From contig JAKIUN010000005.1 in the NCBI GenBank assembly GCA_021647505.1, positions 33,927 through 97,926 on the forward strand: a stretch of 64,000 nt of DNA. Direction: 5' to 3'. How positions within the stretch are numbered: the stretch's first letter is position 1; the number at the start of each line of letters is the position of its first letter. Origin of the DNA: Gammaproteobacteria bacterium. GTDB lineage: Bacteria; Pseudomonadota; Gammaproteobacteria; SZUA-152. Below the pieces are notes generated by a model. It saw nothing but the letters and a program-made list of their open reading frames with translations, searched no databases and had not been told where the DNA came from. The position numbers and the translations under genes are program-made. This document shows positions 25,590-49,475 of this stretch, piece after piece.

Positions 25590-25738
25590 CTTTTTACACT
25601 GAACCACCGGCAAGGAATGCTATGTCTCTCGCTATTATCTACAGCCGCGCCCTGGTGGGCATCGATGCCCCGCTGGTGACCGTGGAAGCACATCTCTCCA
25701 ACGGCCTGCCCAGCCTCTCCATCGTCGGCCTGCCCGAT
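25590..25738 (+). pseudogene. duplicate of the comM 5' end (about 30 bp of upstream DNA plus the first ~40 codons, MSLAIIYSRALVGIDAPLVTVEAHLSNGLPSLSIVGLPD)
   Basis: About 93% identical to 47650-47795. It diverges after codon ~40 and is not followed by the rest of the gene. Confidence 0.8.
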
Positions 25739-26158
25739 TTGGCTGTTACCACTCTTTGCAGGAGATAACAGTCAGGCCAAGTTTAGCCGATAAACTTTTC
25801 TTCCAGGTTTGTTTTCCTTCCTCCAGGATGGTTTCTGGCGTCTGAGGAATATTCCAGCGCCGTGTTGGTGGACAGTGACTATCCCCCTCTCTTCTGCGTC
25901 TGCGGTCAGGCAAACGTTCTTTGGGATTGCGTGTTTTTTCGTCTGTGCGAATACCTGAGCGTTACCTCATAAACGATCCGATGATTTTGGGTCGCACCAT
26001 TCATTGTTATTGGCAAGCCTTAAAACGACTCTCGGGATGGGGGGGGGTGGAAGGATACCTTCCATTTGGAGGCTGTTTGCCTTGCCTTTGCTTCCCCTTT
26101 TCCTTGTTGATGTAGTTGGATGGTTTCTAACTATCTGATAATAAAATAATTATTTTGC

Positions 26159-26174
26159 TGGCAAGATCGTTGCA
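26159..26174 (+). promoter_or_regulatory. sigma54 promoter of the membrane-bound hydrogenase operon (TGGCAA-GATCG-TTGCA)
   Basis: Near-consensus -24/-12 element 80 nt upstream of the hoxK ATG. An AT-rich IHF-like tract lies directly upstream. Confidence 0.55.
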
Positions 26175-26253
26175 TTGGATCCTGGTCGAGGTGCGTGGAT
26201 AAAAACCTAAAGTCGCGTGCGCATCTGTCATACCGAACTGGAGGATACCGGCA

Positions 26254-27339
26254 ATGATCGAAACCTTTTACGACGTGATGCGACGTCAGGGCATCACGCG
26301 TCGCAGTTTTCTGAAGTACTGCAGCCTGACGGCGGCAGCCATGGGGTTGGGGCCCGCTTTTGCGCCCAAGATCGCCCATGCTATGGAAACCAAGCCGCGT
26401 ATCCCGGTGCTCTGGTTGCACGGGTTGGAGTGCACCTGTTGTTCCGAATCTTTCATTCGTTCCGCCCATCCCTTGGCCAAGGATGTCATCTTATCGATGA
26501 TCTCGCTGGACTATGACACCCTCATCATGGCGGCGGCGGGTCACCAGGCAGAATCGATTATCGACGAAATTATCGAAAAGTATAAAGGCAACTACATTCT
26601 GGCTTGTGAGGGTAATCCGGGTCTGGATGAAGGCAAGACGGGTGGCATGTCCTGCATCGTCGGAGGTAAACCTTACACGGAGCAATTGAGGCGGGTGGCG
26701 AAAGATGCCAAGGCCATCATTTCCTGGGGGTCCTGCGCATCCTGGGGTTGCGTGCAGGCGGCAAGGCCCAACCCGACCGGTGCTACGCCCATTCACAAGG
26801 TGCCTGACATCGGTGACGCGCCCATCATCAAGGTGCCGGGTTGCCCTCCGATTGCTGAGGTTATGACCGGCGTGGTGACCTATATGCTGACCTTCGACCG
26901 GCTGCCTTCCCTTGATCGCCAGGGACGGCCACTGATGTTCTACAGCCAGCGCATCCACGACAAGTGCTACCGGCGATCGCATTTCGATGCGGGGCAGTTC
27001 GTTGAGAAATTTGACGATGAAGGGGCACGCAAGGGCTATTGCCTGTACAAAATGGGTTGCAAGGGACCCACGACCTATAACGCCTGTTCCACCATCCGCT
27101 GGAATGGCGGCTTGTCCTTTCCCATCCAGGCCGGACATCCGTGTATCGGCTGTTCCGAGGATGGGTTCTGGGACAAGGGCGGTTTCTATGACCGCCTGAC
27201 CAGCATCGACCAGTTCGGTATCGAATCGAATGCCGACGACGTCGGTCTGGCCGCCGTGGCCGCCGTCGGTGTTGGTGTGGCCGCGCATGCAGCGGCTTCC
27301 GCCGTTAAGCGAGCGCAACAGAAGGGGGATCAGGAATAA
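26254..27339 (+). CDS. hoxK: [NiFe] membrane-bound hydrogenase small subunit (HoxK/HupS/HyaA) with Tat signal
   Basis: [19 protein letters not shown] twin-arginine signal, Cys clusters for FeS centres, GGAGGA RBS. Confidence 0.9.
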
Positions 27340-47266: not shown

Positions 47267-47676
47267 GCGGCGCACGCCGATCTTCTCGCTTGATCTCCGA
47301 TCGCTAATGACCGTCGGTGTTTCGGGTGTGGTACATTTGGATCCGTTAATCTCGTGGTAGAAGGGACGGGCGACGATCATTGCCCGCAAGCTGCGTCTCG
47401 CCTAGAGCAGCGCCTACTGTTGGAGGTGCTACGAAACACCACAGGTTCGCTGTATGCGGCAATGTCACATTGAAAGAGCACTAGGAGTCTGTCGGATTTT
47501 GGAATAGTTTACTGCGCTGATGGGAGGGCGGACAAAATATTGCCGGTTTTTCATTAAATAATCCCACTGTTCTCCTGAAAGCCGGGAGAATTTTGGCTTT
47601 CCCTCCTACCGTGCTCGCTATGATTACCCAAACCCGACAGACTCCTTGAACCCACGAACTACCGACAAGGAATGTC

Positions 47677-49191
47677 ATGTCGCTTGCCATCATCTACAGC
47701 CGCGCCCTGGTGGGCATCGACGCCCCGCTGGTGACCGTGGAAGCACATCTCTCCAACGGCCTGCCCAGCCTCTCCATCGTCGGCCTGCCCGAGGCGGCGG
47801 TGAAGGAGAGCAAGGATCGCGTGCGTGGTGCCCTGCTCACTGCCGGCTTTGAGTTTCCCGCCCGCCGCATCACCATCAATCTCGCCCCCGCCGATCTACC
47901 CAAGGAGGGCGGTCGTTTCGATCTGCCTATCGCGCTGGGCATCCTCGCTGCCTCTGGGCAGATTGCAAGCAGTGACCTTGCGCGCCACGAATTCCTCGGC
48001 GAGCTGGCCCTGAGTGGCGAGCTGCGTCCGGTGCGCGGCGTGCTGCCAGTGGCGATTCAGGTTCGTGAGGCCGGCCGTACCCTGTTGGTGCCGATGGCCA
48101 ACAGCGCCGAGGCCGGGCTGGTGGAGGGCGTCGAGGTGCTGGTGGCCGATCACCTGCTGGACGTCTGCGCCCACTTCAACGGCACCCGTCCGCTGGAGGC
48201 CGCACGGCATAGTGATGGCGGCGAAATGCCCGCGGTGCAGGACGACCTTGCCGACGTGCGTGGCCAGCAGCACGCCAAGCGCGCCCTGGAAGTGGCCGCC
48301 GCCGGGGGGCACAGCCTGCTCATGTGCGGCCCGCCCGGCACCGGCAAGACCCTGCTCGCCAGCTGCCTGCCCGGCATTCTGCCGCTAATGAGCGAGGCCG
48401 AGGCGTTGGAGGCCGCCGCCGTGGCTTCTATCAGCAACCAGCCCTTCGATGCCGCCCGCTGGCGCCAGCGGGCCTTTCGGCATCCTCATCACACCTCCTC
48501 GGGCGTGGCGCTGGTGGGCGGCGGCAGCACGCCGCGTCCGGGTGAAATCTCTCTCGCCCATCACGGGGTACTGTTTCTCGACGAGTTGCCGGAGTTCGAC
48601 CGCCATGTGCTGGAGGTGTTGCGCGAACCACTGGAATCCGGTCGCATCAGCATCTCGCGCGCCGCGCGGCAGGCCGAATTTCCCGCCCGCTTCCAACTGG
48701 TGGCGGCTATGAATCCCTGCCCCTGCGGCTACTTTGGCCACCCCAACGGCCGTTGTCACTGCACCACCGAACAGGTCAACCGCTACCGGGCGCGCATCTC
48801 CGGGCCGCTGCTGGATCGCATCGACATGCAGATCGAGGTGCCGCCGGTGGCGCGTGAGCTGCTGCGCGGCGAGGTCGACCCGGCGGCAGAAGACTCCGCC
48901 AGTGTGCGTGAACGTGTGATCGCCGCCCGCGAGCGGCAGATGCAGCGCGCGGGTATAGCTAATGCCATCCTGAACCATCGTAAAGTGAATACCCATTGCC
49001 GTCTCAGTGATGCCGATGCCGCTCTGTTGGAGCAGGCCATTGAACGGCTTGGCCTCTCCACCCGTGCCTATCACCGTATCCTCAAAGTCGCTCGCACCAT
49101 TGCCGATCTGGCCGAGGTGGCGGAGATTCATACCGCCCATCTCAGCGAGGCCATTGCTTACCGTCGCCTGGATCGTCCGCTCAATTCTTAG
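47677..49191 (+). CDS. comM: Mg-chelatase-like AAA+ ATPase ComM/YifB
   Basis: Lon-protease-like N-domain, Walker A GPPGTGKT, Walker B VLFLDELPEF, C-terminal domain. 504 aa. Confidence 0.9.
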   Translation: MSLAIIYSRALVGIDAPLVTVEAHLSNGLPSLSIVGLPEAAVKESKDRVRGALLTAGFEFPARRITINLAPADLPKEGGRFDLPIALGILAASGQIASSDLARHEFLGELALSGELRPVRGVLPVAIQVREAGRTLLVPMANSAEAGLVEGVEVLVADHLLDVCAHFNGTRPLEAARHSDGGEMPAVQDDLADVRGQQHAKRALEVAAAGGHSLLMCGPPGTGKTLLASCLPGILPLMSEAEALEAAAVASISNQPFDAARWRQRAFRHPHHTSSGVALVGGGSTPRPGEISLAHHGVLFLDELPEFDRHVLEVLREPLESGRISISRAARQAEFPARFQLVAAMNPCPCGYFGHPNGRCHCTTEQVNRYRARISGPLLDRIDMQIEVPPVARELLRGEVDPAAEDSASVRERVIAARERQMQRAGIANAILNHRKVNTHCRLSDADAALLEQAIERLGLSTRAYHRILKVARTIADLAEVAEIHTAHLSEAIAYRRLDRPLNS

Positions 49192-49374
49192 CGTGTAGGT
49201 GGGGTGAATGTTTTTTTATGAACCCCAACATGCCAGAGCGACAGACCACTTCCAAAGTCGTGTTCAAGACAGCGAGCCGATTGCCGCTCATGAGTTTTGC
49301 AAGAGGCTCAGCACAAACAAATTAATTTCAATCTGCAATGGACGCTCATTGTCGCCTCTGCGACGCCGATGCCA

Positions 49375-49475
49375 GCCCTGTTAGCTGGAGCACGCCATCG
49401 AACGTCCCGGCCTCTCCAGCCGTGCCTATTACCGTATCCTCAACGTGGCCGGCGCGGCGGAGATTTACACCGCCG
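49375..49475 (+). pseudogene. diverged, internally deleted copy of the comM 3' end
   Basis: Alignable by eye to 49015-49150 (ERLGLSTRAYHRILKVA...EIHTAH) at roughly 80% identity, with a ~33-bp gap. Confidence 0.55.

Follow-up and report, generated by a model that had tools for sequence, protein, structure and literature searches.

How did a 22-kb block of hydrogen-oxidation genes come to sit at the start of comM in a single uncultured, vent-type gammaproteobacterium? We analyzed this locus in the window, which is the whole 64,000-nucleotide stretch of DNA under study. The sequence was taken from a MAG contig, and the junctions depend on its assembly. We consider it probable, at roughly 0.68 for the explanation as a whole, that the 22,055 bp from 25738 to 47792 are a genomic island, which carries a complete and self-regulated [NiFe] uptake-hydrogenase regulon of the O2-tolerant type. 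The features of the locus are listed in Table 1.

Table 1. Features of the comM locus, in window coordinates
Feature	Position	Strand	Basis or remark
Native ubiK-comM intergenic spacer with REP-type palindromes	25435..25600	+	Aligns with sister spacers of L002, L004 and L005
5′ stub (displaced native comM start; attL-like repeat copy)	25601..25737	+	128/137 identical to 47656-47792
Left non-coding end of block	25738..26253	+	Without homologue in loci and plasmids compared
Sigma-54-type promoter match TGGCAAGATCGTTGCA upstream of hupS	26159-26174	+	Pattern match
Structural and accessory genes, membrane-bound Tat-exported [NiFe]-hydrogenase	26254..35949	+	NCBIfam/Pfam matches; L086 gene calls
hupS	26254-27339	+	TIGR00391, 541 bits; TIGR01409 Tat signal
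hupL	27339-29144	+	NF007550, 892 bits, below the cut-off of that equivalog (1101); clearly a [NiFe] large subunit
hupE	29166-29753	+	
hupC (cytochrome b)	29781-30494	+	TIGR02125, 240 bits
Truncated Aq_1264_TM-like gene	30601-30951	+	
hupD	31386-32090	+	
hupF	32209-32526	+	
hupG	32623-33057	+	
hupH	33065-33922	+	
hupI (rubredoxin)	33915-34142	+	
hupJ	34146-34781	+	
hupK	34771-35949	+	
Maturation genes hypA, hypB, hypC, hypD, hypE	35955..39559	+	TIGR00100, NF007775, TIGR00074, TIGR00075, TIGR02124, each above cut-off
H2-sensing regulatory module (predicted)	39584..44912	+	Family and Pfam matches
hoxA (sigma-54 response regulator; Sigma54_activat domain)	39584-41068	+	
hoxJ (PAS-HisKA histidine kinase)	41088-42455	+	
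hoxB (regulatory hydrogenase small subunit, without Tat signal)	42448-43464	+	
hoxC (regulatory hydrogenase)	43461-44912	+	
hypF, last gene of block	44912..47266	+	Pfam HypF domains
Right non-coding end of block	47267..47655	+	Unrelated to sisters' ubiK-comM spacer
MITE-like element, 164 nt	47483-47646	+	20-nt terminal inverted repeats, 90% complementary
Island-borne comM leader and codons 1-38 (attR-like repeat copy; now heads functional gene)	47656..47792	+	9 differences from stub
Intact comM/yifB, 504 aa	47677..49191	+	TIGR00368 residues 6-496, 658 bits against cut-off 362
Spacer between comM stop and 3′ stub, 155 nt	49192..49346	+	No homologue in fetched loci
3′ stub, decayed copy of comM nt ~1318-1465	49347..49478	+	Joined directly to native lipo148 leader

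The start of comM is present twice. The copy to the left of the block, the 5′ stub, matches the head of the intact gene with 93.4% identity over 137 nt without gaps (E 6e-55). The first-pass annotation had recognized this copy, and the match is real; however, its start at 25590 lay about 11 nt too far left, and the "promoter-proximal DNA" ascribed to it was overstated, as the two copies have in common 21 nt upstream of the ATG. The stub spans comM positions -21 to +116, namely a 21-nt leader with the RBS, the first 38 codons and 2 nt of the next. The 38 encoded residues are the same in the stub and intact comM, and the stub reads on into a 48-codon dead ORF (25622-25768). The start of the intact gene had been placed correctly. 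No further comM-like matches were found in the window at E<0.09 beyond the 5′ stub and a 3′ stub, and on alignment both stubs are true comM homologues.

The native ubiK-comM spacer runs into the 5′ stub, and the sequence upstream of intact comM is unrelated and foreign. The native spacer is the original comM promoter region, which now lies upstream of a dead stub. Its REP-type palindromes, at 25454-25532 and about 25550-25585, comprise an inverted repeat with 33-nt arms, and REP copies were also found in L002, L004, L085 and at 7880-7903 of the window.

In the relatives L002-L005 and L094-L096 (ComM 91-94%), ubiK is located directly upstream of comM without an insert. Five congeneric contigs have this empty arrangement, as do most of 80 related species. 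No hydrogenase genes or stubs were detected at ubiK-comM in the five congeneric contigs, and no 5′ stub was detected among L002-L005, L094-L096 and the 80 species scanned. Thus, the block is a lineage-specific insertion, as the suggestion of an insertion at comM had implied. Relatives having the stubs without hydrogenase genes were not found, nor were a conspecific empty site, a donor, a circular form or a second instance of the island; two scans of JGI metagenomes with the island end sequences gave 0 matches.

The two comM 5′ copies were then compared with the sister alleles. All nine mismatches between the copies fall within the first 66 nt (P=0.0014), and the coding differences are synonymous in five of five cases (P=0.0018). 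Over the last 71 nt of the repeat, the two copies do not differ (one mismatch over 101 nt), and this tract lies beside one with 13.6% divergence. Sister alleles depart from the shared 71-nt tract at 5-7 of 71 positions (P about 0.001-0.006). The stub has four polymorphic states in common with L005, each of its states occurs in at least one sister, and private substitutions are absent (0/137). At the 5′ end of the intact copy, four states are missing from the stub and all four sisters, two of them in the otherwise invariant leader. Judged from these sites, the two copies are different congeneric alleles. In-situ duplication of the comM 5′ end is therefore ruled out by the confinement of the mismatches, the synonymous coding differences and the presence of two alleles. 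The absence of private changes from the 5′ stub marks the insertion as recent. The proposal of an approximately 22-kb island with its own comM 5′ end fits these results: the stub stands on the native spacer, and the intact gene has the foreign upstream sequence and the other allele.

If the genus ancestor had instead already had the block between ubiK and comM, with repeated later loss, two comM 5′ alleles would be needless, and the undecayed stub speaks for a recent event. Exact loss via the direct repeats would be mechanistically easy, and hypCDE adjoin comM in L036, but on the opposite side; most of the 80 species, and all five congeneric contigs, nevertheless have neither the block nor a stub. 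Metagenomic mis-assembly is conceivable for a MAG contig. However, comM meets non-comM sequence at the left junction, unlike in a repeat-induced chimera, and a second MAG record has consecutive accession numbers for HypF and ComM with matching ubiK neighbors, so the hypF-comM adjacency is seen twice. We regard ancestral presence or an artefact as highly improbable.

For the insertion itself, we propose that the incoming DNA carried a 137-nt comM 5′ segment (-21 to +116) and underwent reciprocal recombination with the resident comM. The topology, as read from the sequence, would be that expected of a circular intermediate of the Campbell/att type. The outcome is that the left end received the native promoter, RBS and codons 1-38, now a dead stub, and that the island's leader and first codons are at the head of intact comM. 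The donor was probably an unsampled congener with the island already at comM, and the transfer was probably recent, because the leader allele is congeneric but different and the codon usage is host-like. Codon usage and GC3 of the block are indistinguishable from those of native genes (p=0.55), and GNAT and glycosyltransferase genes, which are truly foreign, separate clearly in the same comparison; neither codon usage nor composition sets the block apart as foreign.

The founding event was most likely mediated by a site-specific recombinase that is now unlinked (deleted or in trans). Elsewhere, proviruses lie against comM genes cut short at residues 29, 40, 42 and 53, and the residue-42 provirus junction has two serine recombinases next to it. 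Thus, the region of comM codons ~29-53 is a recurrent recombinase target. Against a site-specific model, a repeat of 137 nt exceeds the usual length of an att site. The 71-nt identical tract is also unexpected for a fixed-point site-specific crossover, and therefore heteroduplex repair or later gene conversion would be needed.

The same tract, beside its divergent neighbor, has the pattern of a mismatch-corrected heteroduplex, and this favors an explanation without any recombinase: congener DNA with the block beside comM would have entered in a RecA-dependent manner by transformation or conjugation. One form of this explanation is a Campbell-type single crossover of a circularized fragment in the comM 5′ homology. 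The other is homology-facilitated illegitimate recombination with comM as the anchor and an illegitimate left joint at +116, a process said to have been established in naturally transformable bacteria by de Vries and Wackernagel in 2002. A congeneric donor allele means that homology was to hand, and the host-like codon usage and the absence of a recombinase and its remnants from the island are in agreement. However, a linear event with one anchor would normally remove recipient DNA rather than leave a 137-nt duplication of it, no microhomology is evident at 25737/25738, and a junction in the zone of phage recombinases would be a coincidence. Moreover, a donor with the block already abutting comM at -21 is required, which only relocates the founding event. 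We consider entry by RecA alone possible but rather unlikely and prefer a founding insertion by a recombinase. Among congeners, the island may also have spread via RecA recombination through conserved flanks. It now lacks mobility genes, but recombination between the repeats could still remove it precisely.

No integrase, transposase or recognizable remnant was detected in the island, its non-coding ends or the adjacent flanks, in agreement with the earlier report of none inside the block. The only mobile gene of the window, a DDE transposase ORF (1163-2014), lies 24 kb from the island. For the left non-coding end, no homologue was found in 80 comM loci, the closest hupS loci or plasmids; in those hupS loci, homology begins only about 33 nt before hupS. 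The sigma-54 pattern has 2 matches in the 64 kb against 0.49 expected, which weakly supports the predicted hupS promoter. The right non-coding end gave no Pfam or plasmid match, and ORFs in the island ends gave no Pfam match at E<=1. The MITE-like element (fold z=-5.4) occurs once in the window, a 73% copy was found at L004:1687-1852, and no inverted-repeat partner was detected at the left island end.

We also analyzed whether comM itself was replaced. Compared with sister species, comM is 87-88% identical in nucleotides and 91-94% in amino acids, and the flanking genes are at the same level. Its nucleotides 1-1200 are 87-91% identical to those of the sisters, as are amtB, speE and the RND gene, and no identity breakpoint was found across the comM locus in this comparison. 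These identities suggest that the comM body is native. The last ~300 nt are 78-83% identical to the sisters, which are 84% identical among themselves.

The 3′ stub begins 155 nt past the comM stop. Positions 49347-49449 match 48994-49091 with 81% identity (5 gap positions, E 3e-20), and an additional 33 nt (49446-49478) correspond to 49109-49141 with 82% identity. This copy had been noted earlier and is real, but the span given to it (49375-49475) was too narrow. The stub adjoins sequence orthologous to the sisters' comM-lipo148 spacer. It differs from the intact 3′ end at 27 sites. Its private changes comprise 11 substitutions in 132 nt, mostly non-synonymous, and 3 indels, and the contrast with the undecayed 5′ stub is significant (p=3e-4). 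Thus, the stubs derive from two events of different age, and not from one 24-kb replacement. The 3′ stub is the scar of a separate, earlier event at the other comM end, and the 155-nt spacer may have been left by some older element. In L063, L076 and L078, too, displaced copies of the comM 3′ end were observed with no integrase, and that of L063 begins at most 1-2 codons from the start of the 3′ stub in the window.

These results bear on the other scenario of the first-pass annotation, in which one segment (~23.6 kb, 25738-49346, containing the hydrogenase cluster, a foreign comM and the 155 nt) replaced resident codons 39 to ~439. The unequal age of the stubs, the sister-like comM body without a breakpoint and the 71-nt identity of stub and intact gene, which is unexpected for a resident and a foreign allele, argue against it. 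Both stubs do run into native flanks, the identity of the last ~300 nt of comM is lowered, and the 3′ stub has the sisters' state at 13 of the 27 differing sites. On balance, we judge this replacement very unlikely, and the island with its own comM 5′ end is retained.

The cargo is an unbroken cluster on the plus strand (26254-47266), as had been described: hupSLEC, a truncated gene, hupDFGHIJK, hypABCDE, hoxA, hoxJ, hoxBC and hypF. Profile matches were obtained for the Tat-signal small subunit, the large subunit and the b-type cytochrome. The maturation set is complete, with hypABCDEF, the hupD endopeptidase, hupF, and HyaE-like, HupH and HybE-like chaperone matches. The HupS translation carries ECTCC and GSCASWGC cysteine motifs, and its extra cysteines presumably form the six-Cys proximal-cluster motif of Hyd-1/MBH. 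These features point to a Group 1d-type O2-tolerant membrane-bound [NiFe] uptake hydrogenase with an H2-sensing system.

The MBH regulon of the Cupriavidus necator/Rhodobacter capsulatus type consists of hoxKGZ... or hupSLC..., hypA-F, hoxA, hoxBC and hoxJ. The cluster resembles it in gene content, Tat small subunit, cytochrome b, sensing hydrogenase with kinase and sigma-54 activator, and the predicted sigma-54-type promoter before hupS. In contrast, hypX, which was found in the relative L085, is not in the cluster, hupE lies between hupL and hupC, and one accessory membrane-protein gene is truncated. The closest sequenced relatives are 47-94% identical, varying by protein. HupS and HupL are 94% and 91% identical to those of L088/L092, the hypA-hypE products are 73-83% identical to those of L083/L085, and for HypF the closest non-self match in 5.8 billion clusters has 73% identity. 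The regulatory module keeps its gene order in L085 (66-81% identity). The hydrogenase block is a conserved syntenic unit that in related lineages occupies other loci, after ychF (L092) or before recQ/acyl-CoA synthetase (L083/L085).

The locus is an integrase-less genomic island that restores its target gene, a new example of a kind already known. At the prfC 5′ end, SXT/R391 ICEs show behavior much like that of dusA islands. In dusA islands and prophages, the target 5′ end is replaced by an island copy and the remnant lies at the far side; the attL/attR direct repeats are imperfect, the cargo is variable, the gene is kept intact, and an att site with a core of about 21 bp always has a cognate tyrosine integrase beside it (Farrugia et al. 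2015, PMC4482086). As with the dusA/prfC type, the site is empty in close relatives, the repeats are imperfect, and a new 5′ end and an old remnant are present. Unlike in dusA islands, the target is comM, the repeat is 137 nt and the integrase is absent.

An analogy to Tn7-like AbaR islands had also been drawn. AbaR/AbGRI islands (Tn6019/Tn6022, Tn7-like) land in Acinetobacter comM as transposons with tni/tns genes, make a short target duplication and interrupt comM (PMC7093585). Here, too, comM hosts a large accessory island; however, the defining features fail. No tnsABC/tniABC-type genes or target selector were detected in the island or flanks, comM is full-length (504 aa), the repeat is 137 nt in two alleles rather than a 5-bp duplication, and paired terminal inverted repeats are absent.

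In A. ferrooxidans, iMGE6 is a 94.9-kb comM island with an integrase and direct repeats, and iMGE9 is a 20.2-kb [NiFe]-hydrogenase island without an integrase (PMC10322971). CMGI-2 and CMGI-3 of C. metallidurans CH34 carry hyp/hox genes and are full Tn4371-type ICEs (PMC2864759). The present island resembles these elements, in which comM is targeted in chemolithotrophs and complete hydrogenase clusters are carried, sometimes with the integrase unlinked. In contrast to them, the comM site and a hydrogenase-only cargo are united here, with no mobility module.

The island has a clean anatomy, yet it is fairly ordinary as genomic islands go, and its interest is modest. A broader idea, which we hold to be quite unlikely, is that comM here is a two-ended landing pad for recombinase-free cassettes that replace gene ends. 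Its traces would be the undecayed 5′ stub with the 71-nt tract, the old 3′ stub and the copies in L063, L076 and L078. If this were true, accessory blocks would bear a short comM 5′ or 3′ copy as a homology handle and would be inserted by host recombination during natural transformation, with the ORF restored. Cassettes without mobility genes of their own would thus spread among congeners, and their landing site would be the gene whose own product drives branch migration during transformation.

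The comM region was compared with the remainder of the window by BLASTN, and beyond two stubs no comM match with E<0.09 was found there. The 5' stub consists of a 21-nt leader, codons 1-38 and two nucleotides of codon 39. The 38 residues that it encodes are the same as in intact ComM; an exact look-up of its 48-aa ORF found no record. The plus-strand [NiFe]-hydrogenase cluster between this stub and comM is uninterrupted. The alignments and the gene content bear out the arrangement described in the first-pass annotation, namely two comM copies with the hydrogenase cluster between the 5' copy and comM. 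That annotation also placed promoter-proximal DNA in the 5' copy: the RBS-proximal 21 nt are common to both copies, but the promoter is not included. Its 3' copy is real, with the start refined to 155 nt past the comM stop.

Positions of the features in the window and in the comparison loci (L-numbers)
Feature	Position	Description
DDE transposase ORF	1163-2014	only transposase-like ORF in window
Glycosyltransferase segment	1163-5183	DDE transposase ORF beside very low-GC segment (GC 0.29-0.40) encoding group-1 glycosyltransferase and two unknown proteins
REP-type palindromes (GTGGGAGCGGCTTCAGCCGCGAAGC...)	7880-7903; 25454-25532; L085:12382-12445	also in L002 and L004
PEP-CTERM protein genes	19481-21927	two genes, GC 0.48, between speE and DUF4124 gene
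5' stub	25601-25737	vs 47656-47792: ungapped, 128/137 identical, E 6e-55
Hydrogenase block, + strand	25738-47792	hupS, hupL, hupE, hupC, truncated membrane-protein gene, hupD, F, G, H, I, J, K, hypA, B, C, D, E, hoxA, hoxJ, hoxB, hoxC, hypF
Truncated membrane-protein gene	30601-31063	hupC-hupD gap; homologue (71% nt) of 253-aa Aq_1264_TM-family gene
MITE-like element	47483-47646	164 nt; 20-nt terminal inverted repeats; very stable fold (z=-5.4)
Diverged MITE-like copy	L004:1687-1852	73%; 8 kb upstream of comM
Intact comM	47677-49191	504 aa; TIGR00368 658 bits vs cut-off 362
3' stub	49347-49449	vs 48994-49091: 81% identity with gaps, E 3e-20
3' stub extension	49446-49478	33 nt, matches 49109-49141
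GNAT segment	49984-50898	acetyltransferase gene 50149-50595, GC 0.44, between lipoprotein and RND adaptor genes
Decayed hydrogenase cluster	L083:4427-10001	hupS and hoxC as fragments only; hoxA, hoxJ, hoxB gone
hypC, hypD, hypE	L036:11578-14015	Competibacteraceae-like MAG; directly downstream of comM
ubiK-comM gap (~5 kb)	L033, L037, L042: about 4800-10000 in each	Roadblock/LC7 protein, small Ras-like GTPase, ABC-ATPase/PTP-phosphatase fusion, globin-ferredoxin protein
comM 3' copy	L063:12447-12603	cargo: PEP-CTERM-like protein
comM 3' copies	L076:13963-14425, 16891-17353	cargo: two tandem units, 499-aa protein plus HTH regulator
comM 3' copy	L078:15211-15661	cargo: 724-aa protein
Provirus, L122	comM residue 29	truncation
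Provirus, L134	comM residues 25-31	truncation; phage tail and Dam methylase genes
Provirus, L133	comM residue 40	truncation
Provirus, L128/L130	comM residue 42	truncation; two large serine recombinases alongside
Enterobacterial prophage in yifB, L129/L131	residue 53	truncation; portal and terminase genes

A ComM scan with one genome per GTDB species gave 80 loci, and the window proteins were mapped onto every locus. Four loci (L002-L005), with ComM 91-94% identical, are evidently congeners, and the order amtB-glnK / ubiK-comM-lipoprotein-MFP-RND is kept in them. Adjacency of comM to ubiK where hydrogenase is lacking, raised in the first-pass annotation, was found in the congeners and in most of the 80 species, in which comM lies directly downstream of ubiK. 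A further species-level set (L094-L096) has the same empty site. Self-comparison of each locus detected no 5' stub elsewhere, the reverse of relatives that carry the stubs and no hydrogenase genes. Since this stub was absent from the other loci and no hydrogenase genes were found upstream of comM in the 80 loci mapped, the block is an insertion specific to this lineage. No conspecific empty site was found; the sole extra contig with an identical UbiK stops 131 nt past ubiK. The window is a MAG contig. The same ubiK neighbours recur in a second MAG record, where the HypF and ComM accession numbers are consecutive, but the two assemblies may not be independent. In three Thiohalomonadaceae-like loci, ordinary genes without a comM stub separate ubiK and comM.

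To the left of the 5' stub, 166 nt that contain two REP-type palindromes can be aligned with the ubiK-comM spacer of the sister species. The sequence left of intact comM is unlike this spacer, and similarity starts only at -21. With native spacer beside the stub and unrelated DNA beside the intact gene, the 5' stub is the displaced native start, and the leader of the functional comM is now an imported one.

The differences between the two 5' copies are clustered: 9/9 fall within the first 66 nt (P=0.0014 for a uniform spread), and 8/9 within the first 36. All of the coding differences (5/5) are synonymous (P=0.0018). Four polymorphic states are common to the 5' stub and the congener L005. Of the states of the intact copy, four occur in none of the sisters, and two of these four lie in the leader, which is otherwise invariant; this copy is the same as the congener L002 at 60/66 positions. 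A fresh duplication of the comM 5' end is ruled out by the clustering, the all-synonymous changes and the allele states. Both alleles are genus-type, and two congeneric comM alleles shaped by purifying selection meet here. Since two such alleles are present, the incoming DNA would formerly have resided beside a congener's comM. The last 71 nt of both copies are identical, and three states there are absent from the sisters; the sister alleles and the window disagree at 5-7 of those 71 sites. This identity is unlikely to have arisen by chance (P about 0.001-0.006); the tract is either an exchange region with corrected heteroduplex or the result of later gene conversion.

Intact comM is 87-88% identical to the sisters at the nucleotide level overall and 87-91% for nt 1-1200. 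The flanking genes speE, amtB and RND show the same level, and the window genome behaves as a slight outgroup, uniformly along the whole locus. No identity breakpoint marking a large imported tract was found at the insertion. Since the identity is like that of the flanks and no breakpoint is present, the comM body is best read as resident, with only the leader and the first codons arriving with the block.

The 3' stub directly abuts, with no spacer, sequence orthologous to the sisters' lipoprotein-gene leader. Thus, it sits in the place of the native comM 3' end. Over 132 nt it has 11 private substitutions, of which seven or more are non-synonymous, together with three indels, whereas the 5' stub has 0 private substitutions in 137 nt (Fisher p=3e-4). 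By this contrast, the two stubs are of very different age. A single ~24-kb replacement that left both stubs, proposed as one possibility in the first-pass annotation, is rejected by the age gap, and the 3' stub is the scar of an earlier event. Diagnostic sites for the native 3' copy split 13 vs 11 by identity to the sisters, and either copy is possibly the original. The 155 nt between the comM stop and the 3' stub have no homologue in any fetched locus. Displaced comM 3' copies downstream of intact comM were also observed in other proteobacteria (L063, L076, L078), with cargo of 0.9-3.7 kb and no integrase between the duplicates. In L063, the copy begins no more than 1-2 codons from the point where the 3' stub of the window starts.

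No mobility genes were found in the block, in which every ORF is a hydrogenase gene; the flank genes are amtB, glnK, ubiK, lipoprotein, GNAT and RND pump genes. The ORFs of the block's non-coding ends gave no Pfam hit at E<=1, and no recombinase pseudogene was found there. These ends had no match in plasmids, the 80 comM loci or the closest hupS loci, and plasmid-derived ends are ruled out by the lack of a plasmid match. Rfam gave no hit within the window. The MITE-like element ends 10 nt before the comM homology, and the promoter that comM now uses, or a terminator, could lie within it. A composite transposon or MITE pair is ruled out, since the inverted-repeat element is single and has no left-end partner.

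The composition of the whole window is patchy. By GC3 and synonymous codon usage, the hydrogenase genes were indistinguishable from 17 native genes (p=0.55), and the clear outliers were the GNAT gene (GC3 0.45) and the glycosyltransferase region (GC3 0.20). The comparison of block and flanks suggested in the first-pass annotation gave no foreign signal: GC content, GC skew and codon usage do not discriminate, and the block looks native. The glycosyltransferase segment is probably a separate foreign surface-polysaccharide fragment. The GNAT gene is absent from all congeneric loci, where the lipoprotein and RND adaptor genes are adjacent, and its segment, a short way downstream of comM, is a second insertion that is small and foreign in composition. 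The congener L094 lacks the PEP-CTERM genes and has just a 76-aa ORF in their place; the PEP-CTERM segment is another lineage-specific insertion.

A search of 5.8 billion protein clusters gave a closest HypF with 73% identity, and the corresponding hydrogenase clusters (L083-L085) have the same gene order at an unrelated locus. The closest HupS (94%) and HupL (91%) belong to L088 and L092, in which this cluster lies after ychF. Because the same cluster sits elsewhere in all these loci, the block is a conserved syntenic unit of related lineages, transplanted to comM here. No donor or second instance of the island was found, the closest HypF and HupS both being at other loci. Exact scans of JGI metagenomes gave 0 hits for the left end and 0 hits for the island-borne leader allele. 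Thus, the immediate donor is unsampled. A genus REP half-site directly after hypF in L085 suggests that its organism is of a related lineage. The REP-type palindrome family is common to the window genome, two sister species and the L085 organism, and may be usable as a lineage marker. Both L088 and L092 have an intact Aq_1264_TM-family gene at this position; the window keeps only a 116-138-codon ORF. The decayed L083 cluster is the closest external relative of the hyp/hypF genes, and hydrogenase clusters in this group have evidently been lost as well as gained. The Competibacteraceae-like MAG is an independent case of maturation genes adjoining comM, on the opposite side from the window.

The topology is native left repeat, island, island-borne right repeat and restored comM. 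A circular molecule carrying the 137-nt comM 5' segment would produce exactly this topology by one reciprocal exchange with the chromosome; no circular form of the island was found. A RecA-only route, Campbell-type or homology-facilitated, is a live alternative, in keeping with the length of the identity tract, a congeneric donor and the lack of any recombinase remnant. Proviruses in IMG/VR, from several groups of hosts, lie against comM copies that are cut off at residues ~29-53, and phage attachment at the comM 5' end is widespread. Because the first ~50 codons of comM are a recurrent recombinase target and the window junction lies at codon 38/39, a founding integration by a site-specific recombinase, since unlinked from the island, is favoured. 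Whichever way it was formed, the structure can be passed from congener to congener through recombination in the flanks, which are conserved, and can also be lost by recombination between the repeats.

The dusA-specific islands swap the dusA 5' end, leaving a remnant 5' end and imperfect attL/attR (PMC4482086), and the window island has the same architecture. The Tn7-like AbaR islands, for which comM is the classical site, disrupt the gene (PMC7093585). The first-pass annotation drew an analogy with these islands, but the block lacks every defining feature of that family. For A. ferrooxidans, one island of 94.9 kb that has an integrase is listed at comM, and another of 20 kb, which lacks an integrase, carries [NiFe]-hydrogenase genes (PMC10322971); in C. 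metallidurans CH34, hyp/hox clusters are carried on ICEs (PMC2864759). Since comM islands, hydrogenase islands and hyp/hox ICEs are already known, each ingredient has precedent; specific here are their combination and a clean structure that restores the gene and lacks an integrase.

For an uncultured gammaproteobacterial genus associated with vents or sediment, the acquisition of aerobic H2 oxidation is dated and localised. H2 oxidation is accessory here, gained as one 22-kb self-regulated unit, and its precise loss would be possible in principle. The role of comM as an integration site extends beyond clinical Acinetobacter to environmental chemolithotrophs. Insertion at comM was gene-restoring here, in contrast to the gene-disrupting AbaR mode, so that competence need not be lost. 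Metabolic inference from MAGs calls for caution, since hydrogenotrophy can differ between sister species ~90% identical in core genes.
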